Shown in pieces: positions 47,917 to 57,404 of a DNA stretch of 64,000 nucleotides. This DNA comes from Oceanispirochaeta sp. (GTDB taxonomy: Bacteria > Spirochaetota > Spirochaetia > DSM-2461): the NCBI GenBank assembly GCA_963663385.2, contig CAXXXD010000004.1, forward strand, positions 768,001 through 832,000. The letters run 5' to 3'. Each line of letters starts with the position of its first letter. Within the stretch, counting starts at the first letter, position 1. A program made the translations under genes and the position numbers. Under the pieces are notes generated by a model. That model was not told the origin of the DNA. It made no database searches and was given only the letters and a program-made list of their open reading frames with translations.

Positions 47917-48438
47917 TTATTTGAAAATACTGTTCCCCTTGCTGTCGATGGCAACGAATACGGGAAAATCGGTTACTTCCAGTTTATAGATTGCTTCAGG
48001 TCCCAGATCTTCAAATGCTATAAGTTCACAGGAGGTAATCCGGTCCGAATAGAGAGCCCCGCATCCTCCGAAGGCATAGAGAAATACAGCCCCGTTCCGT
48101 TTGATAGCCTCATAGACATCCCTGTTCCGGTTGCCTTTGCCGATCATTCCGGTAAGCCCCCGGTCAAGCAGGGCAGGGGCAAAGGGGTCCATCCGTCCGG
48201 CTGTCGTCGGCCCGGCGGAACCTATGACCCGTCCCTCCGGTGTAGGGCTTGGCCCCATGTAGTAGATGATGTTCCCTTTCAGTTCTATCGGGAGGGGTTC
48301 ACCCTTATCCAGAAGTCCTATCATCCTCTGATGAGCCTGGTCGCGGCCCACAAAAATGGTCCCGTTCAGCCTCAGTTCCTCTCCGGCTTTCAGTTCTTTT
48401 ACAAAGGATTTTTCAAGGGGGAGTTGTATCTTTCTCAT
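47917..48438 (-). CDS. Class I Fe-S fumarate hydratase, beta subunit
   Basis: GRDQAH, YYMGP.P, SAGPTTAGRMD, MIGKG, GGCGAL, DLGPEAI, AIDSKGN. Confidence 0.92.
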   Translation of the reverse strand: MRKIQLPLEKSFVKELKAGEELRLNGTIFVGRDQAHQRMIGLLDKGEPLPIELKGNIIYYMGPSPTPEGRVIGSAGPTTAGRMDPFAPALLDRGLTGMIGKGNRNRDVYEAIKRNGAVFLYAFGGCGALYSDRITSCELIAFEDLGPEAIYKLEVTDFPVFVAIDSKGNSIFK

Positions 48439-49277
48439 AGGGTTACCACCAGTTTTCTATCGGCCCAGCAGTTGACGCTTACCGCGACGGGGAGGCCTGC
48501 AATATGGGTCGGGTATTTTTCAATTTTCACCCCCAGGGCTGTTGTCTTTCCCCCCAGCCCGCCCGAACCGATCCCTGTCGCGTTGATGCGGTTCAGAATT
48601 TCATCTTCCAGTTCGGCGTACCAGGGGTCGCTGTGATGTTCATCCAGGTTCCTCAGCAGGGCTTTTTTGGATAACCGGGCGGCATAATCCATGGTTCCTC
48701 CCATTCCCACTCCCAGAACAACCGGGGGGCAGGGGGCTCCGCCGGCCTCTTTGACCACGTTGACAACCGATTCAATGACTGTTTCCCTGTCAGCTGTCGG
48801 TTTATGCATTATAATGCGGCTGCAGTTTTCACTGCCGAATCCCTTGAGAAGTCCCTGGATCACCAGTCTGTCTCCGGGGATGCTGTCATAGTAGATAATG
48901 GGGGGAAGGTTGTTCCCCGTATTCTTTCTCTCTTTAAGAGGATCCTCCACTACGGATTTTCTGAAAAATCCTTCTTTATAGGCATCTTCTACCGCACGCT
49001 GGATCAGGGCTTCCAGAGGCTCTCCCTCCAGTTGAAGTTCCCGCCCGGTAGAAACAAAGAGGATCACCATCCCCGTATCCTGACAGAGAGGTATCTTTTT
49101 TTCCCGGGCAATGACCAGATTTTCCAGGATATGTTCCAGGACGCTTCTGGCCGGTCCTTCCTCCTTGTGCTTTGCCTTCTCTATGCCGGAGAGGATGTCT
49201 TCAGGCAGAACGACACCGGCCTGTATGATCGCCTCTTTCAGGGGGGTGTAAATTTCCTGTGAGTTCAGCTTTCTCAT
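48435..49277 (-). CDS. Class I Fe-S fumarate hydratase, alpha subunit
   Basis: PLCQDTG, KGFGSEN, GGAPCPP, GLGGKTT, PTHIAGLPVAV..NCWA.R. Confidence 0.92.
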   Translation of the reverse strand: MRKLNSQEIYTPLKEAIIQAGVVLPEDILSGIEKAKHKEEGPARSVLEHILENLVIAREKKIPLCQDTGMVILFVSTGRELQLEGEPLEALIQRAVEDAYKEGFFRKSVVEDPLKERKNTGNNLPPIIYYDSIPGDRLVIQGLLKGFGSENCSRIIMHKPTADRETVIESVVNVVKEAGGAPCPPVVLGVGMGGTMDYAARLSKKALLRNLDEHHSDPWYAELEDEILNRINATGIGSGGLGGKTTALGVKIEKYPTHIAGLPVAVSVNCWADRKLVVTL

Positions 49278-50086
49278 TTATTTGCGTATCCTTTAATATT
49301 TTCCAGTTCGGTTTTTGTCTGACTCAGTTCCTTCATAAGGGAGAGCATTCTGACGCTGTTTTTCATTCTGGCCATAAAAAGATTCACATCGAAGGGTTTC
49401 ATAATATAATCATCTGCTCCAAAGAGGAGAATCTGGGACATGGCTTTATAGCTTCTGATTCCGGATATGGCAATGATGACTTTATCTCCCTCCTGTTTCC
49501 GGAGTTCCATTACCACATCCTCCCCCGACAGGTCCGGCATTATCAGATCAACCAGATAAATGGCGTATTTTTTACTGCTTTTAAGCAGATCTCCGGGATT
49601 CTGGAAATAGTCCACATGCCGGATTTTATTCAGTTCGAATATGCTCCGTATGGCGCTCAGGGCCAGTTTGCTGTCATCCAGTACGGCTATTTCCAGTCCC
49701 TGCAGCTCCCGGGTGAACCCGTCTTCAGAAATAAAAATATCAAAATATTTATCCAGTCGGTTCTGGGACAGTTCCGATTTAAGAATATAGTCCACTACAC
49801 CCATATCAAAAAGTTCCTCCCTTGATTCCAGGGAGTTGTTGGATGTTACAGCGATGACAGGGACTTTTGCCCAGGGGGATTTCTTCAGGTTCCGGATAAA
49901 CTCCTCACCATGACAGTCTGCCAGTTCCAGTCCGGTAATTATCAGGTCTACTTCTTCCTTTTTTAATATCTCCATAGCAGTAGCGGCGCTGTCTGTCTCT
50001 TCAAACTGCAGCCCTTTTTCAATGGCAATATTACGGATAATTTTTCGTACGAACTGACTGTTATCTATGTGCAGTATTCTTTTCAT
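49274..50086 (-). CDS. Tandem receiver-domain response regulator (first domain atypical)
   Basis: REC1 ILHIDNS...DLIITG (phospho-Asp replaced); REC2 VLDDS...LVDLIMPD...GADDYIMKPF. Confidence 0.85.
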   Translation of the reverse strand: MKRILHIDNSQFVRKIIRNIAIEKGLQFEETDSAATAMEILKKEEVDLIITGLELADCHGEEFIRNLKKSPWAKVPVIAVTSNNSLESREELFDMGVVDYILKSELSQNRLDKYFDIFISEDGFTRELQGLEIAVLDDSKLALSAIRSIFELNKIRHVDYFQNPGDLLKSSKKYAIYLVDLIMPDLSGEDVVMELRKQEGDKVIIAISGIRSYKAMSQILLFGADDYIMKPFDVNLFMARMKNSVRMLSLMKELSQTKTELENIKGYANK

Positions 50087-50137
50087 TTGTTCATCCTTCC
50101 GTGAGTCTTTCCATTATAGTATGAGAGGCGTTCAGGA

Positions 50138-50196
50138 TAAACATAAAAAGCAACAGAAACAATAAAAGAATTCAGTTTATGTTTATACTCTGTTCA
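50138..50196. promoter_or_regulatory. OmpR-type tandem direct-repeat boxes in the divergent promoter region
   Basis: TAAACATA(50138)/GCAACAGA(50150) on + and TATGTTTA(50178)/TCTGTTCA(50189), the same motif on -, 11-12 bp period. Confidence 0.55.
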
Positions 50197-50219
50197 TATT
50201 TAGTTGTATAGTATTAATC

Positions 50220-50921
50220 ATGACGAGAATACTGGTTGCAGAAGATGAGAAGAAAATTAACGATATGATTTGTGACTATCTGGAGGCGCTGGGATTTGAA
50301 ACCGATTCCGCTCCGGATGGGCGGGAAGCCCTGAAACAGTTCCGGAAGAATCCCCCGGATCTTGTCCTTATGGATATTATGATGCCTGTTCTGGATGGTA
50401 CGGATGTCCTCCGGGAGATACGGAAGGAGAGTCGTGTCCCTGTAATAATGGTAACGGCCAGGGCAGATGAAGGGGATAAGGTCCTGGGGCTTGAACTGGG
50501 TGCGGACGATTATATAACCAAGCCTTTCAGTATGAAAGAGATGGCCGCCCGTATCAGAGCGGTTCTCAGACGGGCTGAGCCGGTTCCGGGTCCGGATGGA
50601 TCCGCAGCTGAAGAGGAACCAGTCTCTCTCCGGGAATTAACCCTCGATCCGGTCAAGAGGAGTGTCCGTATCGGCGGGAAGTCTGTGGAAATGACAGCCG
50701 CCCAGTTCAGTATTCTCCATAAGATGATTCGAACACCCGGCAGGGTCTATACCCGGATGGATCTGCTCAAGTCTTTTCAGGAGGATCCCTATGAGGGGTA
50801 TGAGCGATCGATTGATGTACATATCAAAAATATCCGGAAACTCATAGAGTCCGATCCGTCTCATCCCGGGTATATACAGACCGTATGGGGTGTCGGGTAT
50901 AAAATGAAGGAAGAAGAGTGA
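50220..50921 (+). CDS. OmpR family response regulator (BaeR-like)
   Basis: VAEDE, LMDIMMP, GADDYITKPF; winged helix RSIDVHIKNIRK...TVWGVGY. Confidence 0.95.
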   Translation: MTRILVAEDEKKINDMICDYLEALGFETDSAPDGREALKQFRKNPPDLVLMDIMMPVLDGTDVLREIRKESRVPVIMVTARADEGDKVLGLELGADDYITKPFSMKEMAARIRAVLRRAEPVPGPDGSAAEEEPVSLRELTLDPVKRSVRIGGKSVEMTAAQFSILHKMIRTPGRVYTRMDLLKSFQEDPYEGYERSIDVHIKNIRKLIESDPSHPGYIQTVWGVGYKMKEEE

Positions 50922-52336
50922 AGTTCTCCCTTTCGTTAAAACTGGTGTTTCTTATTGCCGGCACTATCCTGATCAGCAGTCTGGTTACAATTGTGCTGGT
51001 TAACTCCTACTCATCCCGCCGGTTCAAAGGGTACGCTCTGCAGCGTGATATCAATATTGCCCTGACCATCGCCGGATACCTTACCGATGCGGCGGAACAG
51101 GGACAGCTGGAAGAAGCCGTTCAATCCTTCTCCCTGATTCAGAACACTCCGGTTCCCGCCATGAACAGGGCTCCCGGAATGATGGGAGGCGGGCGCATGG
51201 GAATGAGACAGGATGAACAGCGGATCGCACCTGTCCCCTTTGTAATCGCCGATGAATCAGGCCGCATCCTCAGAAAGAACTTCCCCGATGTTGAAGATCA
51301 TAAATTTCATCTCTCCAGAGAGACTGTTTCAGAAGGGGTTCTGTATTATGATCAGAACCATCAGCCGGCCGGCTATGTACTGGCCGGTTCCATGATAGGA
51401 GGAAAACTGTCTGAAAATGAAGCTGTTTATCTGAAATCCCTGTCATCGGGTATCCTGTTTTCCTCCTTCCTTGCCTTGATTCTGGCATGTCTCATTGGTC
51501 TGGCTGCTCTCGGCAGGATTCTTAAACCCCTCAAATCCCTGAACGAAGGTGTCCGTCAGTTAAGCCGTGGAAACTACTCCTGTCAGGTCGAGAACCCCGG
51601 GAGCGGGGATGAAATCAGTCAATTGGCCGAAGGATTTAATGAAATGGCCCGCTCCCTGCAGGCTTCCGAACAGTGGAAGAAACAGATAATTTCCGATACG
51701 GCCCACGAACTGCGCACTCCTGTAAGTCTGATCATGGGGAATCTGGAAATGATGCTGGAAGGGGTTTATCAGGCAGATGAAACAAGATTGCGTTCTCTTT
51801 ATGATGAAAGCGCTCTTCTGGCAGAACTGATACAGGATCTGCATGAACTTTCAAGCGTTGAATCATCCATGACCAGCCTGGAGAGAGAGCCTTTTGAGCC
51901 GGATACCCTGCTGCGGCTCAGTGCAGAGGGATTCAAGGCGGTCTCGCGGGATAAGGATCTTAAGCTTGTGGTGGAGGCCGGCTTCGGGAGGTCCTGGAAC
52001 GGGGACCGCAGAAAGATTCAGCAGGTTATTAAAAATCTCCTGTCCAATGCAGTGAAGTTCACTCCTCCCAGGGGGACTATTTTTCTGCGATCCTACCAGT
52101 TGAACAGGGAGCTTGTCATTGAGGTGGAGGATACGGGACCGGGGATTCCGGAAGAAGAGAGAAGCAGAATATTTGACCGTTTCTACAGGATGGACAGGTC
52201 CCGTAACAGGAAAGACGGGGGGGCCGGTTTAGGGCTGGCTATCAGTAAAGCCATAGTAGAACTGCATAACGGAACCATTGGCGTGTACCCGGGAGAGAAG
52301 GGGGGAGCCCTTTTCAGGATAAAATTATCGATTTAA
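50918..52336 (+). CDS. HAMP sensor histidine kinase (BaeS-like)
   Basis: 2 TM, periplasmic GMMGGGRMGM stretch, HAMP DEISQLA, AHELRTP, NLLSNA, DTGPGI, GAGLGLAI. Confidence 0.95.
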   Translation: MKFSLSLKLVFLIAGTILISSLVTIVLVNSYSSRRFKGYALQRDINIALTIAGYLTDAAEQGQLEEAVQSFSLIQNTPVPAMNRAPGMMGGGRMGMRQDEQRIAPVPFVIADESGRILRKNFPDVEDHKFHLSRETVSEGVLYYDQNHQPAGYVLAGSMIGGKLSENEAVYLKSLSSGILFSSFLALILACLIGLAALGRILKPLKSLNEGVRQLSRGNYSCQVENPGSGDEISQLAEGFNEMARSLQASEQWKKQIISDTAHELRTPVSLIMGNLEMMLEGVYQADETRLRSLYDESALLAELIQDLHELSSVESSMTSLEREPFEPDTLLRLSAEGFKAVSRDKDLKLVVEAGFGRSWNGDRRKIQQVIKNLLSNAVKFTPPRGTIFLRSYQLNRELVIEVEDTGPGIPEEERSRIFDRFYRMDRSRNRKDGGAGLGLAISKAIVELHNGTIGVYPGEKGGALFRIKLSI

Positions 52337-52389
52337 CATAATTCTTGACAGGAACTTCATGAAAACTTAACAGAACCGGTTTATATTAT
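52333..52389 (+). promoter_or_regulatory. Four phased direct repeats plus a -10-like box downstream of the kinase gene
   Basis: TTAACA(52333), TTGACA(52345), TTCATG(52356), TTAACA(52367); TATATT at 52382. Confidence 0.6.
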
Positions 52390-52452
52390 CCCCATCAAGT
52401 AGCTGAATGCATACAAAAACAGGGTCAAACATTGAAAAAATGCCTGACTTTA

Positions 52453-52481
52453 TTGACTTTTAGTCATGAGATTATTATATT
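52453..52481 (+). promoter_or_regulatory. Near-consensus sigma70 promoter with overlapping palindrome
   Basis: TTGACT-17bp-TATATT; palindrome TGACT-TTT-AGTCA (52454-52466). Confidence 0.7.
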
Positions 52482-52487
52482 TCAGGT

Positions 52488-52663
52488 ATTAGAGACGGTA
52501 TTTGCTGCTGTTCCAAGTTTTCCCTCCTTTTCTTGGCAGCAGTTAAAGATAAGGTAGGATTTGTTGTTAACTTATTCTATCGGAAGAAGAGCTTGATTAA
52601 CTTTTTTTCCATTTTGCTTTTGGGCCCCTGCAGTTTCCTCCTTTTCTGCAGGGGCTTTTTTTT
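52488..52663 (+). ncRNA. Candidate small RNA with four hairpins, two carrying anti-SD (CCUCCUU) loops
   Basis: Own promoter; hairpins 52504-52543, 52548-52581, 52582-52610 and terminator 52622-52663 ending in T8; no credible ORF. Confidence 0.65.
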
Positions 52664-52767
52664 ATCCAAAATTATTTTCGCATCAGTTCTTACATTTGTA
52701 AAGGAAAAAAGATAAAATATTCCCGCTAGGTGTTTTAGTACACAGGGCGGGAATAAGAAAGGAAGAA

Positions 52768-53484
52768 TTATACAGGAAGAAGACTCATAACAAGACCGAT
52801 CAAGCCCCCGAATACACCGCCCCAGAGGACCAGCCATCCCAGGTGCTTGCGGATCATATCCTGTATTATTTCTTTAACCATCCCGGGAGTCAGTTCTTCC
52901 AGGCGTGTAAAAACAATATTTTCCACTTTTGAAATAATGTCTTCGGCAGCGGTTCCTGTATCAATCGCGGAGGCAAGGGTTTTGTGAAATTCAGGGGTGG
53001 CCGTTTCCGTCAGGATAACTTCCCTGGTTTTCTCCTTGAAAGGAGCTCTGAATCCCTCAATAACCGAGGCCCCTCCGAACATCCCCAGCATCCCTCCAAA
53101 GGAGGAGGTTAGAATCGTTTCACTTAGCCCATCAAAAATCCTGTCATAGTTTACAGCTTCAGCTGCTGCCCTGAAATCTACTTTTGCCGTCAGAACACCT
53201 GCCTCATCATTCATAATGCGGGAAACATTCTCTTCTGTAAAAAACTGATCCATTATCATCTGATGGATCCCTTTTTTAAAATCCTCAAAATGGAGGGGGA
53301 TGACGCCGGAACCATAAAGGCCGGGTACTCTTTCAAAAAGCATATGGATAGCCAGCCAGTTTGTTACGGCTCCGGAAAGGGCAAAGAATCCCATAGACCG
53401 GATCTGTTCCTGAAACCAGGGGCTGACATATCCTGCTGCAACAACCACAAGGGTAAAAAGGGTTGTCATACTGCTCATATTCAT
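52768..53484 (-). CDS. DUF445 family membrane protein
   Basis: FALSGAVTNWLAIHMLFE.VPGLYGSGVIP; HLGWLVLWGGVFGGLIG. Confidence 0.88.
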   Translation of the reverse strand: MNMSSMTTLFTLVVVAAGYVSPWFQEQIRSMGFFALSGAVTNWLAIHMLFERVPGLYGSGVIPLHFEDFKKGIHQMIMDQFFTEENVSRIMNDEAGVLTAKVDFRAAAEAVNYDRIFDGLSETILTSSFGGMLGMFGGASVIEGFRAPFKEKTREVILTETATPEFHKTLASAIDTGTAAEDIISKVENIVFTRLEELTPGMVKEIIQDMIRKHLGWLVLWGGVFGGLIGLVMSLLPV

Positions 53485-53541
53485 CTGTTTTATCCTGCTT
53501 CTCTGTCAAAAAGATTTTTCTTCCGATATATTAAATGAGTC

Positions 53542-54624
53542 ATGGTAGTAAAAGCAATACGGTCCTGCCGGGTATTTGTTCTCCTGTTTATTCTCTTCCT
53601 GGGGCAAGGTCCCCTGATCAGCGAAGATTCTTCTCCTGAGGGACCGGTTCCCATACCTGAATTCTCTTTTGATGTGCTGGATTTCTACTCTATAGGGTGG
53701 TCCAGGCAGGGGCGGATCGCCTTCGGCGTCAGTTCTCCCGGAGAAGGCGGGGGGCGTTCATGGATCTGGTATGTTCAGGATCTTGTGGAGGATAAACTCC
53801 TCTTCTCAAGTCCCCGCTGGACTTTGATGGACGGCCAGACCCCTGCTGATCTCTGGGTACGCCATCCGGAATGGTACTCCCAGTTGATTCGTTTCGGAAT
53901 TACGCCGGACGATACTATAATCCGGGGGGAAAAAATCTTCCGTCTGAATGATATCCCCTACAGGATGGAAGTGAGTATGGACCGGTCGGAAACAGCTGAT
54001 GAACCGGAAGGGCTGACCAGGAACATCTCCATACAGTTTTACCGTAATAATGATACAGTCAAGGCTATCTATACATATCAGCCGGATCCGGCCAGAGAGG
54101 TTGTGGATGATATGGTGCTGAAGGGGTATGTTAAAAATCCTTTTGAAAACAGGATCGCCGTTATCGCCCTGGAAAGATCCGGTCCCCGTTCCGGGGAGAC
54201 CGAGTGGAAGTACCGTGTTTTCGGCGCCCACCTCTCAGTGGGGTTCTCTCCCCTGATCAGAAAGGGCAGCGAGCTGGCTGAAGCTGTGTTGAACGGGCAG
54301 TATTACGTAAGCCGCATGTACCTTCAGAACGGCGCAGATCCTGATGAAGAGGATCTGCGGGGGTATCCGGCTCTTCTCCTGGCAGCGAGACGAGGCCTGT
54401 GGGATATCGCTTCCCTTTTACTGGATGCCGGAGCTGATCCGGACCGGGCTGATGATACGGGAAGGACCCCCCTCCACTATGCCGTGGCAGCCCAGGAGGA
54501 AGAGGTCGTATCTCTTCTGCTGGAGAGAGGAGCTGATCCGGATCGAAAAGATTCGAAAGGTCTTTCTGCCAGGCAGGAAGCCGCCATAAAAGGGAATCCG
54601 GTCATAATACGGGAATTCCGGTAA
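53542..54624 (+). CDS. Exported protein with C-terminal ankyrin repeats
   Basis: Hydrophobic N-terminus; GYPALLLAA, LLLDAGADP, GRTPLHYAV, LLLERGADP. Confidence 0.85.
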   Translation: MVVKAIRSCRVFVLLFILFLGQGPLISEDSSPEGPVPIPEFSFDVLDFYSIGWSRQGRIAFGVSSPGEGGGRSWIWYVQDLVEDKLLFSSPRWTLMDGQTPADLWVRHPEWYSQLIRFGITPDDTIIRGEKIFRLNDIPYRMEVSMDRSETADEPEGLTRNISIQFYRNNDTVKAIYTYQPDPAREVVDDMVLKGYVKNPFENRIAVIALERSGPRSGETEWKYRVFGAHLSVGFSPLIRKGSELAEAVLNGQYYVSRMYLQNGADPDEEDLRGYPALLLAARRGLWDIASLLLDAGADPDRADDTGRTPLHYAVAAQEEEVVSLLLERGADPDRKDSKGLSARQEAAIKGNPVIIREFR

Positions 54625-54649
54625 CTGTTCAGGAATTGCAGACAGATCC

Positions 54650-56146
54650 CTATAGGGAGAAGTTAAGACCTTCGGTTTTCAGTTCTTCAATAAAGAGATC
54701 AAAGTCCCTTTCCTTCTCCAATCTGAAAAACTGCAGAACCATATAGTTCAGATCATGAAAGTCCCGCTCTTTTCTATCATAGTAATAGATTTCGTTACCC
54801 AGATAAACGGCATAGGTCAGGGCCCTGTTCTCTTCACTGCACTCCAGAGGGGTATGATGATACAGGATAGCCTGTATGAATTTTTCCGGAAAATCCCATT
54901 TTTTCATCAATTCCGCGCCGATAATTGTATGGTTGTATCCTTCTGCCAGGTCTTCCAGCAGAGTAATGGGGATATGTTTTTCCTTGCATATTTCGGTCAG
55001 TTTTTTTTCAAGGTCCGCACTGAGAGCGTTCACAATGATTTTTCCAAAGTCATGAATAAGGGCTGATATGTAAATGTCTTCAGCCAGTGTGCGGAGACCC
55101 CTGTACTTCGCCAGAAAACTGGCAATCAGGGCGACATGGAAGGAGTGGCTGTTCACTTCCTTTACCATGTTTTTGTTGTACCGTTTTTCAAATACCTTTT
55201 TTGCGCCATAGTTATAGAGTATGGATTTTACACCGAGCATACCAATCATGCTGACTGCGGCGGAAACATCCGAGATCTTGTCTCCTCTTCTGTAAACAGG
55301 AGAGTTGGCAATCCTGAGAATTTCTGTGGCAAGGGAAGGATCGGATGTAATGGTTTCGGATACGGATTCAAAGGTGCAGGCAGGATTGCTGAGTTCTTTC
55401 TGAAGGATCTGTATATTTTCGGGAAACTGGGGCATCTGATCAACTTCCCTGACGATTTCTGCTGCCAGTATATTCCCCTGTTCTCTTGATACATGGTGCA
55501 ATGGGATTGTCATTCCGGTACATCCCGAATCCCCTACATTCTGAAAGGTGAGGGACTTTTCGTCCAGATTGACCTTCCGTAACATCTGAAGGATCACAAT
55601 CAGTCCATAACCGGCCCCCTCCGTATCGTCAAACCCGTAGGCGAGGACTTCAGCAAGGGACTGAAACTGTCTTGCGACTTTTATCCGTTCTGCAATTCTC
55701 AGTTTCTCTTCATAAACCATGGGACTGTTATTCAGGATCTTTATCTCAAGCTTTTCCTCATGGATTTCATATCTGATTCGTACATAGGTGTTCTGTTCCC
55801 TGTGGGCCGCCTCATATTTTTCAAAATGATCGAACACATCCTTTTTAAAGCTGCTCATCCCTTTTCTGTAATCGGCCTCGTTATTAATATCCAGGCCCTG
55901 CATCTGAAAATAGAGTCTTTTGGAATTGGCTTTGCTGGCATTCATGCAGAGTTCATTCTGGGCGTATTCCAGATAGGAGTGGAGCTTCTCCTGACTGATT
56001 TCTGATAATACGGCTTTTAATATACGGGATAGCCCCCTGTCGCTCTCCCTGTTTACGTAAGGGATTGTGCATATAAAGTGCCTGTTCTTTTTAAACTCTT
56101 CTCTTACCGTGTCTTCCGAAACACCCAGGATATCCGTGAATTCCAT
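54650..56146 (-). CDS. HDOD domain protein with N-terminal HATPase-like domain
   Basis: ELCMNASKAN and GAGYGL; MPQFP, DPSLATEILRIANSP, LIHDFGK, NHTIIGAELMKKW.FP, YHH. Confidence 0.88.
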   Translation of the reverse strand: MEFTDILGVSEDTVREEFKKNRHFICTIPYVNRESDRGLSRILKAVLSEISQEKLHSYLEYAQNELCMNASKANSKRLYFQMQGLDINNEADYRKGMSSFKKDVFDHFEKYEAAHREQNTYVRIRYEIHEEKLEIKILNNSPMVYEEKLRIAERIKVARQFQSLAEVLAYGFDDTEGAGYGLIVILQMLRKVNLDEKSLTFQNVGDSGCTGMTIPLHHVSREQGNILAAEIVREVDQMPQFPENIQILQKELSNPACTFESVSETITSDPSLATEILRIANSPVYRRGDKISDVSAAVSMIGMLGVKSILYNYGAKKVFEKRYNKNMVKEVNSHSFHVALIASFLAKYRGLRTLAEDIYISALIHDFGKIIVNALSADLEKKLTEICKEKHIPITLLEDLAEGYNHTIIGAELMKKWDFPEKFIQAILYHHTPLECSEENRALTYAVYLGNEIYYYDRKERDFHDLNYMVLQFFRLEKERDFDLFIEELKTEGLNFSL

Positions 56147-56159
56147 GTTTTCTCCATTT

Positions 56160-57404
56160 TTAAATAGTAACTCTGTTTTTTCCCAGTTCTTTTGCTTCGT
56201 ACATTTTTTTGTCCGCTGCAGTTATCATCTCGGAAAAAGTCGCTCTCTTCTCCAGGCAGAGGCCGATGCTGGCCGTCACATTAAAGACGGTTTCATTATT
56301 CTGGAATTCTATCTTGCTGATCTTGTCCCGTATTTCCTCAAAAAGCACAAGCGCATCCTTGGGGTGCATATTGTTTCCAACGATGCAAAACTCTTCTCCC
56401 CCGTACCGGCTGATTATATCAGACTCTCTTATACTTTTTTCCAGTACTTCCGAAACCTTTTTCAGTACCTGATCGCCCGCATCATGGCCAAGGGTATCAT
56501 TGATCCATTTGAAGTTGTCCAGGTCCATCATGGCAACAATCAGGTACTGACCGGTTCTCATGGCGGATTTGAGGAGAAGATCTCCTGTTTCGTAAAGGTA
56601 TCTGCGGTTGTGAAGCCTGGTTAACGGATCAATAAGCGCTTCCTCTTTTATCAGTTCAAAGCTGTCCACCAGCTTCAGATTCTGATAGATCCGGCAGAAC
56701 AGAAGATCGCTGATAAAGGGTTTTGTAAAGAAATCATTGGCTCCGTATTTGATGAATTTGATCATCATGGAGTGGTTTCCCTTTGCGGATATTCCGATAA
56801 TGGCAAGGCGGTCGGTGGAAAAACTCTGCCGGATTTTCCTTGTCAGGTCAAATCCGTCGCAGCGGGGCATGCTGTAATCGGTCAGAACCAGTTTAATATC
56901 CATCTGTCTTTCAAGGATTTCCATCGCCTCAATCCCGTCTCTGGCTTCATATACCCTGAATTGATGGATATTCAGAAGTTGACGGAGATGTTTACGGGCA
57001 ACAGTGGAGTCATCTACCACAAGAATTCCGACATCTTTATTTTTAAAGAATCGCTGTATCATTTCCAGCAGATAGTTAATACAGTTGCTGTCTTCTTTTA
57101 AGACATAATCAATAACCCTTCTCGACCAGGTGGATTCCTGCACGTCTGGAGAAAATCTGCCGGTCATGACAATGGTCGGGATCTTCTTTGATATGCAGAG
57201 GTCTACAATTTCCCCTTCCTGTGCATCGGGAAGGTGAAAATCCAGCAGGGCAAGGGACACCTTGCCGATTTCATCCAATGCTTCCCGGGTCTGGGCCAGA
57301 GTTTTATACCAGAGAACCGTGTATCCTAACCGTGATTCAATATTATGTTTTAATAATTTACCAAAGAATTGACTGTCTTCAACGATTAGAATCTTAACTT
57401 CCAC
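56160..57404 (-). CDS. REC-REC-GGDEF diguanylate cyclase
   Basis: Two receiver domains (LLDFHLPD; LTDYSMP); DPLT.LHNRR; RESD I-site; GGEEF. Confidence 0.93.
   Translation of the reverse strand: MEVKILIVEDSQFFGKLLKHNIESRLGYTVLWYKTLAQTREALDEIGKVSLALLDFHLPDAQEGEIVDLCISKKIPTIVMTGRFSPDVQESTWSRRVIDYVLKEDSNCINYLLEMIQRFFKNKDVGILVVDDSTVARKHLRQLLNIHQFRVYEARDGIEAMEILERQMDIKLVLTDYSMPRCDGFDLTRKIRQSFSTDRLAIIGISAKGNHSMMIKFIKYGANDFFTKPFISDLLFCRIYQNLKLVDSFELIKEEALIDPLTRLHNRRYLYETGDLLLKSAMRTGQYLIVAMMDLDNFKWINDTLGHDAGDQVLKKVSEVLEKSIRESDIISRYGGEEFCIVGNNMHPKDALVLFEEIRDKISKIEFQNNETVFNVTASIGLCLEKRATFSEMITAADKKMYEAKELGKNRVTI

Follow-up and report, generated by a model that had tools for sequence, protein, structure and literature searches.

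Does the unannotated DNA between a sensor kinase gene and a convergent membrane-protein gene of Oceanispirochaeta sp. encode a regulatory RNA, and if so, on what would such an RNA act? The question is raised by positions 52453-52663 of a 64,000-nt stretch of contig CAXXXD010000004.1 (positions 768,001 to 832,000 of the forward strand; henceforth the window, in whose numbering all plain coordinates are given), in which an earlier note, made from the letters alone, had proposed a stand-alone small RNA (sRNA) with two loops complementary to the Shine-Dalgarno (SD) sequence. Our analysis reveals a conserved RNA gene on the plus strand (52487-52663), which has its own promoter and terminator and no conserved open reading frame (ORF), i.e. 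is non-coding. We estimate at roughly 60% the probability that its product is a trans-acting sRNA, which masks the SD regions of mRNAs with two CCUCC loops and is probably activated by the two-component system next to it. The RNA family is new, and the kind of regulator is well known.

Sequence and predicted fold of the RNA

Folding of 180 nt from position 52488 yields four successive hairpins, termed here H1 to H4, with a minimum free energy (MFE) of -56.8 kcal/mol (z = -4.59), which none of 200 dinucleotide shuffles reaches. The loops of H1 and H4, the latter comprising 12 nt with the sequence UUUCCUCCUUUU (anti-SD site 2), are unpaired in both the MFE and the centroid structures, and have CCUCCUUU in common with the 3' tail of the host 16S rRNA, which ends in GGAUCACCUCCUUUC in all five copies. 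The linker between H3 and H4 (52611-52621) reads AUUUUGCUUUU. A scan for ORFs of at least 25 aa found none on either strand in three of the 11 genomes of the genus, and in the others the frame and the length vary; a small minus-strand ORF, with 13 codons after an SD-like loop, is not conserved.

H2 and H3 resemble each other in their apical sequences (GUUGUUAAC, 52563-52571, containing the palindrome GUUAAC, and CUUGAUUAA, 52592-52600), and these UUG(A)UUAAC sequences are conserved to the same degree as the anti-SD loops. They may constitute a protein site or engage in a loop-loop contact. A 9-nt complement of the H2/H3 apical sequence, GUUAACAAC, is located just past the terminator of a sibling RNA described below (C4:685140), where it could occur by chance, judging by its count.

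Conservation and covariation within the genus

BLASTN searches identified orthologs in all ten other genomes of the genus (75-86% identity), and tblastn comparisons show the same order of kinase, RNA, convergent DUF445 gene and ankyrin-repeat gene in 11 of 11. The covariance model R1, built from the 11 sequences, scores 150-190 bits on every one of them and 166.9 bits on the copy in the window (52487-52663). In the alignment fitted to this model, which for that reason leans towards the structure, standard pairs occupy 95.0% of the 440 cells, as compared to 47-66% with partners slid by 1-3 columns; compensatory changes on both sides are seen in 14 of the 40 base pairs, and none of 500 column shuffles matches the observed pairing or covariation. 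RNAalifold, applied to a plain MAFFT alignment, independently recovered H2, H3 and H4 with 10 compensatory pairs, and missed H1 because a one-base indel in the loop puts two subgroups out of register.

The individual hairpins evolve in different ways. The outer stem of H1 differs by species (GCUGCUG/CAGCAG, CUGAUG/CAUCAG, ACUGUC/GACAGU, CUUCAG/CUGAAG) around a constant loop; compensatory changes are found in all six outer pairs of H2; H4 covaries between GCAG/CUGC and GAAG/CUUC; H3 is almost invariant and includes two G·U pairs. The anti-SD loops are invariant in the genus, with UUUUCC(C)UCCUUUU in H1 and UUUCCUCCUUUU in H4, and a tail of seven to nine U residues follows H4 in all 11 genomes. 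The structure also has a direction: 95.0% of the cells are paired if the alignment is read on the plus strand and 84.3% if it is read on the minus strand, G·U combinations fill 51 cells as compared to 4 for A·C, and H4 with its U7-9 tail works as a terminator in the plus direction only.

Most of what the earlier note had read between 52453 and 52663 is borne out by these comparisons. The promoter, the four hairpins and the U8 terminator all lie where it had placed them, and the unannotated RNA gene of about 175 nt that it postulated proved to be a stand-alone unit, whose promoter and terminator are kept in all 11 genomes. The two near-identical anti-SD loops are present and do not vary among relatives, and the ten orthologs show the invariant loops over compensating stems (14 of 40 pairs) that it had named as a check. 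For H2 the hairpin is there, but the proposed register is slightly off with respect to the one supported by covariation. The palindrome TGACT-N3-AGTCA over the -35 hexamer, interpreted in the note as the operator of a dedicated repressor, does occur in the window, but in none of the ten orthologous promoters, and that interpretation is not supported.

Promoters and genomic neighborhood

Analysis of the region upstream of the RNA reveals a consensus promoter and a second, putative one of different character (Table 1). The proximal one, P1, matches the consensus at 10 of 12 positions, which is the best match in the region, and both hexamers and the 17-nt spacer are identical in 11 of 11 genomes. 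The distal one, P2, is inferred from three boxes spaced by one period, and begins 9 nt past the stop codon of the kinase gene. In the relatives the boxes usually read TTGATA, TTCACA and TTGACA, separated by AATC-type spacers, and the layout (box, 9 nt, TAnnnT) is retained in nine of the 11 genomes; the triple-box pattern (TTSAYA type), defined strictly, has its sole match in the 5.3-Mb host genome at this locus. Promoters under activation by regulators of the OmpR/PhoB family are characterized by direct repeats with such a period and distance from the -10. The promoter of the two-component operon has a comparable layout in all 11 genomes (TT(C/T)AYA-N5-TTCAYA, 8-9 nt, -10, 7-9 nt, ATG), and the mRNA of the response regulator begins without an SD sequence in every one of them (leaderless-type). 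The TTCAYA direct repeats suggest autoregulation of the operon, and the likeness between its boxes and those of P2 suggests that one regulator may bind both.

P2 and P1 are separated by a hairpin, whose 3' arm coincides with the -35 hexamer of P1 in most relatives and whose stem sequences vary across genomes while the pairing is kept (as judged by eye). Transcripts from P2 would have to cross this hairpin to give a 5'-extended form of the RNA. On the other side, just past the RNA terminator, a promoter-like block directed against the RNA gene (TTTACA-17-TGn-GA(G/A/C)AAT) is present in nine of the 11 genomes. Between them, the convergent block and the P2-P1 hairpin could mark out an antisense RNA of some 250 nt, or else the point where a long 3' untranslated region (3'UTR) of the DUF445 gene ends.

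The order of genes at the locus is sensor kinase (stop at 52336, plus strand), RNA gene, and the end of the convergent DUF445 gene (52768, minus strand). The connection with the upstream two-component genes, to which the note had drawn attention, is upheld by synteny in 11 of 11 genomes. A comparison of the two-component proteins with NCBIfam gave no equivalog at the cut-off, the best matches being YycF- and BaeS-like. The DUF445 neighbour is kept in ten of ten relatives (70-85% identity), and the database entries closest to its protein bear the titles Spirochaetales, Spirochaetaceae or Spirochaetia (79-51% identity). Nine neighbouring ORFs, scanned between 47917 and 57404, include fumarase, regulators, the kinase, DUF445, ankyrin, HDOD and GGDEF proteins. 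A 270-aa protein encoded divergently to the two-component operon (49274-50086, minus strand) comprises two receiver domains and no output domain recognised by Pfam. The host is a free-living marine spirochaete, in whose genome (98% complete) we found no Hfq domain and one CsrA gene.

Table 1. Coordinates of the RNA gene, its hairpins and the surrounding features (positions in the window)
Feature	Position	Strand	Description
Two-component operon promoter	50182..50222	+	TTTATA-N5-TTCATA, 8 nt, -10 TATAGT, 7 nt, ATG
Response regulator, OmpR/PhoB-type	50220-50921	+	Pfam assignment
Sensor kinase	50918-52336	+	HAMP-HisKA-HATPase; Pfam assignment
Promoter P2 (inferred)	52345..52387	+	Boxes TTGACA, TTCATG, TTAACA with 11-bp period; 9 nt; -10 TATATT
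Hairpin between P2 and P1	52424..52448		A-run upstream, T-run downstream; terminator-like in both directions; scan flags it as a minus-strand terminator-like site
Promoter P1	52453..52481	+	TTGACT (52453-58), 17 nt, TATATT (52476-81)
Small RNA gene, ~177 nt	52487..52663	+	Start inferred from the -10; end set by the U8 tail
H1	52504..52543	+	Bipartite stem GCTGCTG-tt-CCAAG / CTTGG-CAGCAG around TTTTCCCTCCTTTT; 14-nt loop UUUUCCCUCCUUUU (anti-SD site 1)
H2	~52553..52581	+	Variable stem, conserved apical GUUGUUAAC
H3	52582..52610	+	GGAAGAAGAG, CTTGATTAA (loop), CTTTTTTTCC; arms also given as GGAAGAAGAG / CUUUUUUUCC with loop CUUGAUUAA
H4, intrinsic terminator	52622-52657 (to 52663 with the U8 tail)	+	GGGCCCCTGCAG, TTTCCTCCTTTT (loop), CTGCAGGGGCTT, then T8 (52656-63)
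Promoter-like block (putative)	52674..52702	-	TTTACA, 17 nt, TGn-GAAAAT; directed antisense through the RNA gene
DUF445 membrane-protein gene	52768..53484	-	Pfam assignment; convergent to the RNA; terminator-like hairpin at ~52716-52752

Sibling and related RNAs

The full-length unit is single-copy in the host genome, short terminator look-alikes aside. The design of its terminator (a GC-rich stem, the loop UUUCCUCCUUUU and a U-run) recurs in four more copies. Two of these are tandem stand-alone units (C4:684983-685422), which have equivalents in the other genomes of the genus; the remaining two, hairpins of identical sequence, directly follow two unrelated protein genes (C4:418277-418308 and C4:433104-433135). 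Weaker R1 matches of 25-50 bits, one to five per genome, were found in every genome of the genus, and they sort into recognisable sibling types, some with an additional UUCUCC stretch. The suspicion voiced in the note that paralogs exist was therefore justified, as siblings with the same terminator loop are found in every genome of the genus. One weak match in the host (C2:1243933) was discarded as an ordinary terminator and no paralog.

Both tandem siblings (C4:684983-685135 and 685259-685422; L002 and L051) display the loop UUU(U)CCUCCUUUU in a GC-rich terminator; one of them also possesses a purine/U hairpin like H3 and an unpaired AUUUCUCCA, and the second has an extended -10 (TGTTATAAT). 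In the two 3'UTRs, an identical element of about 60 nt is located about 50 nt past the stop codon and comprises CTTTGAATA..TGTAGCTTC and the hairpin with the loop GUUCCUCCUUUU. The two elements could represent anti-SD RNAs derived from 3'UTRs, or a small repeat.

Outside the genus the distribution is patchy. The R1 search over 27 genomes of the other five genera of the family gave two matches only (G015 and G043), both without CCUCC; in 10 spirochaete records of greater distance, R1 found no ortholog next to the DUF445 genes. Class-wide, in a scan run with stricter filters, 34 of 147 Spirochaetia genomes of other genera yielded matches at E <= 0.001. We inspected 28 matches in the 27 of these 34 genomes whose matches were stronger: the terminator loop contains CCUCC (ACUCC in one case) in 25 of the 27, which represent 17 GTDB families, while the matches in G025 and G182 and the second match in G104 were rejected as spurious. 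None of 20 class-level related loci has a match at gathering score in Rfam.

Two types stand out among these related RNAs. The two-loop type (G104, G079, G029, G176, G136, G061 and G114; loci L138, L149, L155, L140, L142, L143 and L153) measures about 113-130 nt, is preceded by a consensus promoter, and has ACCUCCUUUCC in both loops and a 5' loop, GUUU(U)CACCUCCUUUCC, which is a 12-letter copy of the 16S tail. The H3-like type (G089, G057, G156, G105, G112, G069, G170 and G081) comprises the hairpin GAAGAGAG...CUUUUUUC followed by CAUCGACCUCCUUUU and the anti-SD terminator. As to other features of these loci, in G104, G079 and G029 the gene next to the two-loop RNA has its -10 about 9 nt from the ATG and no SD, and a UGUAAC(C) motif (e.g. 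TTTTTTGTAACTTTT or CGTAACCATTCC) is common in the 5' part of many related RNAs (L150, L156, L157, L164, L145, L158, L161 and L162, as well as the siblings within the genus). An alignment of the terminator modules for a common model was unsuccessful, as stems of unequal length fell out of register. With related units occurring across the class, the RNA at 52487-52663 would seem to be the four-hairpin representative, confined to its genus, of a much wider, uncatalogued set of spirochaete RNAs, and for the H3-H4 module common descent of all related types appears likely.

Proposed mechanism and candidate targets

According to the mechanism that we propose, the two exposed CCUCC loops would pair with the SD regions of mRNAs and thereby block the initiation of translation, the H1 and H4 loops acting as redundant seeds in the manner of LhrC, an sRNA of Listeria. 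The U-runs that flank CCUCC would favour A-rich sites of the AAAGGAGG type. As they would extend pairing on such sites, which are rare, the loops could be selective; among the sites preceding ORFs of at least 80 codons, GGAGG occurs 1169 times, AAAGGAGG 29 times and AAAAGGAGGAAA once. The P2 boxes would couple the output of the RNA to the sensor, probably by way of the 5'-extended form. Since no Hfq was found, pairing would be chaperone-independent, directly from loop to SD, and since the operon mRNA is devoid of an SD in the 11 genomes, it would itself escape an anti-SD RNA. In this form the RNA gene, the adjacent sensor with its matching boxes as a plausible input, and the masking of ribosome-binding sites (RBSs) as a plausible output make up a complete, testable circuit from sensor to translation.

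A more far-reaching version, which we regard as rather doubtful, would extend this scheme to the whole class: a superfamily of Spirochaetia RNAs, with loops that copy the 16S tail (UCACCUCCUUUC in one subgroup), would compete with ribosomes for SD sites and in this way throttle mRNAs led by an SD as a group, and spare SD-less or leaderless ones. At this locus a member of the superfamily would have been captured by a two-component system whose own mRNA, being SD-less, is immune to it, and would be restrained by a cis-encoded, fully complementary anti-RNA from the convergent promoter.

Several observations weigh against the SD-masking mechanism or against its link to the sensor. Duplex energies of the loops, calculated against 8551 ORF starts (ORFs of at least 100 aa), form a continuum without a standout target (median -12.3 kcal/mol, top 1% at -20.5 kcal/mol), and many of the top matches are internal false starts. 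RBSs of the AAGGAGG type occupy 114 sites in the genome, of which the top 20 are mixed: they precede genes for a Crp/Fnr regulator, permeases, a periplasmic binding protein, an outer-membrane efflux protein and Rnf subunits, and also include false starts inside PGK and EF-G. As to individual candidates, the Crp/Fnr-type gene with the best RBS match (C3:1553704) was dropped as a conserved target, since none of the ten relatives possesses an ortholog at E <= 1e-30, and the RBS of the DUF445 gene is purine-rich but contains no specifically conserved extended complement of the loops. Target prediction, advocated in the note, thus singled out no conserved target among the 8551 ORF starts and 114 AAGGAGG sites. 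The H2/H3 loops, though conserved, are given no role in a model based on base pairing.

With respect to the input, a degenerate two-box search over the genome returned 10 matches as compared to 3-10 in spacing controls, i.e. no enrichment; the box motif being poor in information and unenriched, conservation across genomes and adjacency are all that the two-component link has to draw on. P2 is moreover located upstream of the terminator-like hairpin at 52424-52448, so that its transcripts may end before the RNA. The conserved convergent block suggests that antisense transcription could be part of the mechanism, or even the main one. As regards expression, a search of sequencing runs found no RNA run of the host organism, and one metatranscriptome run gave a single contig of 156 nt, from a relative with 92% identity, which covers 52677-52800 and beyond and no part of the RNA; this contig says nothing for or against expression of the RNA.

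Alternative explanations

The convergent block is the starting point for two alternatives that place a transcript on the minus strand. In one of them the locus encodes a sense/antisense pair: a minus-strand transcript, or a long 3'UTR of the DUF445 gene, traverses the RNA gene as far as the hairpin in front of P1, where it terminates, and the two RNAs neutralise each other by duplex formation and cleavage or by transcriptional collision, the main target being the cis partner and not distant mRNAs. This would account for the position of the block (TTTACA-17-TGn-GAnAAT) just past the terminator in nine of 11 genomes and for the hairpin upstream of P1, which is followed by T5-T8 on the minus strand; in G006 the DUF445 stop abuts the block without a hairpin of its own (by eye), G009 and G010 look alike, and the RNA-library contig of the relative spans DUF445 through the block to 52677, its strand and ends not being established by the contig. 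However, invariant loops over stems that covary on the plus strand imply a function of the loops, for which perfect antisense pairing has no need, the siblings and the relatives in other families have the same loops without the convergent arrangement, and the minus-strand -10 hexamer is weak, so that we hold a sense/antisense pair to be unlikely, though the most serious of the alternatives. The other alternative, that the functional RNA is the minus strand itself, whose two hairpins would present AAAAGGAGG(G)AAA and, by way of this SD mimic or CsrA-type GGA site, sequester CsrA or ribosomes, is in keeping with the promoter-like block and the terminator-like hairpin conserved on that strand and with the presence of a CsrA gene. 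It is very unlikely in view of the lower pairing on the minus strand (84.3% vs 95.0%), where the 51 G·U cells would turn into C·A, of the plus-only termination by H4 and its U7-9 tail, and of the perfect conservation of P1.

Among the explanations that retain the plus strand, a protein-binding RNA deserves mention, in which the loops titrate a factor that binds pyrimidine loops or ribosomal protein S1, or the H2/H3 UUG(A)UUAAC loops bind a protein. Two identical loops on one RNA are a layout also found in protein-sponge RNAs, and this explanation would provide a role for the H2/H3 apical sequences, which are conserved like the anti-SD loops and left unexplained by base pairing with mRNAs. Yet we know of no candidate protein, CsrA is encoded but its GGA recognition site is absent from the plus-strand loops, and CCUCCUUU, shared with the 16S tail, is most simply read as a sequence for SD pairing; protein binding as the main function therefore appears quite improbable to us. 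That the element is a mere structured 3'UTR or terminator of the two-component operon, without a function in trans, seems highly improbable: the absence of a strong terminator between the kinase stop (52336) and the RNA speaks for it, as do the two protein genes that end in identical 3'UTR hairpins with a similar loop (C4:418277 and C4:433104), but a consensus P1 is present directly upstream in every one of the 11 genomes, the stems drift around loops that do not change, and stand-alone siblings and relatives exist. We also considered a bridge (guide) RNA of an IS110-type element aimed at ribosome-binding sites, as two look-alike loops complementary to the RBS sequence might suggest; with no recombinase among the nine neighbour ORFs (47917-57404), and with a unit that is single-copy and syntenic in 11 of 11 genomes, this reading was rejected. 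The explanation that we prefer is still that of a plus-strand sRNA, whose two loops would mask SD regions.

Comparison with known anti-SD RNAs

Those characteristics of trans-acting anti-SD sRNAs that are legible from sequence, namely an independent non-coding unit of conserved structure and exposed, invariant loops complementary to the SD, are found in the RNA described here. At the level of families the picture is different. A search of Rfam with 52300-52800 gave 18 matches up to E = 10, none of them at gathering score; the best was LhrC (RF00616; 29.6 bits vs the gathering score of 110, E = 0.016), with the terminator hairpin alone aligned, and neither the csRNA model, nor RsaE/RoxS (RF01820), nor the Cuckoo and alpha-r14-type RNAs appear among the 18. 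The note had not recognised any family here, and Rfam agrees; the Firmicute RNAs that it had invoked remain an analogy only, as the host is a spirochaete and no Firmicute family model matches. Our literature search found no such RNA for free-living spirochaetes, the spirochaete matches listed being Borrelia small RNAs and one paper on Treponema denticola flagellin. Outside Borrelia, the regulatory RNAs of spirochaetes have hardly been explored.

C-rich hairpin loops serve as seeds that mask the SD in RsaE/RoxS and in RNAIII of S. aureus, and RoxS/RsaE is under the control of ResDE/SrrAB. To our knowledge, the motifs in RsaE and RNAIII are CCCC/UCCC and are confined to Firmicutes. In Alphaproteobacteria, the Cuckoo or alpha-r14-type RNAs (CcsR, NfeR1) are multicopy and consist of repeated hairpins with CCUCC-type anti-SD loops. 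The spirochaete RNA resembles the latter in its hairpins that display CCUCC-type loops, and differs from them in phylum, architecture and genomic context.

The closest parallels are offered by two families from Firmicutes. In the LhrC study (Sievers et al. 2014, PMC4132741), LhrC1-5 of Listeria monocytogenes are described as multiple LisRK-dependent copies, in which loop A and the terminator loop display redundant, target-competent motifs that are CU-rich and U-flanked, and which pair with SD regions to block translation, Hfq being dispensable. As far as that description goes, the RNA from Oceanispirochaeta shares the CU-rich, U-flanked motifs in the loop of a 5' hairpin and in the terminator loop, the existence of sibling copies, and the independence of Hfq, insofar as no Hfq was found in the host. 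LhrC has seeds in the 5' hairpin loop, in a single-stranded stretch and in the loop of the terminator; two of these three positions are present here (the H1 and H4 loops), with CCUCC instead of UCCC, which is an analogy and no proof of descent. Dependence on the OmpR-type LisRK has its counterpart in the adjacency to an OmpR-type system and in regulator-type boxes, both read from sequence alone. By the same description, the differences lie in the lack of sequence homology, the other phylum, and the size (about 175 nt and four hairpins here vs 111-114 nt and two in LhrC). Unlike LhrC, the RNA gene is located directly behind the presumed two-component operon.

The csRNAs of the streptococcal CiaRH regulon, according to Marx et al. 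(2010, PMC3091779), have direct repeats for CiaR 10 nt from the -10, and anti-SD stretches. On this account the likeness extends to hexamer-N5-hexamer regulator repeats that replace the -35 at about 10 nt from the -10, to the anti-SD sequence, and to the occurrence of several types or copies. The details differ: the csRNA boxes are two TTTAAG repeats (TTTAAG-N5-TTTAAG) at 10 nt, whereas P2 possesses three boxes of the TTSAYA type with N5 spacers at 9 nt from the -10, and the anti-SD and anti-AUG sequences of csRNAs are located in an unpaired linker between two stem-loops, whereas here the anti-SD sequence is displayed in two hairpin loops. Unlike in csRNAs, a second, canonical promoter (P1) is inserted between the boxes and the RNA.

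The mechanism proposed here is thus a familiar one, known from LhrC, csRNA and RoxS, and involves no new principle. Its value lies in the extension of anti-SD regulation to a new phylum, with related RNAs indicated across 17 families of the class, and in the unusual arrangement of convergent promoters.

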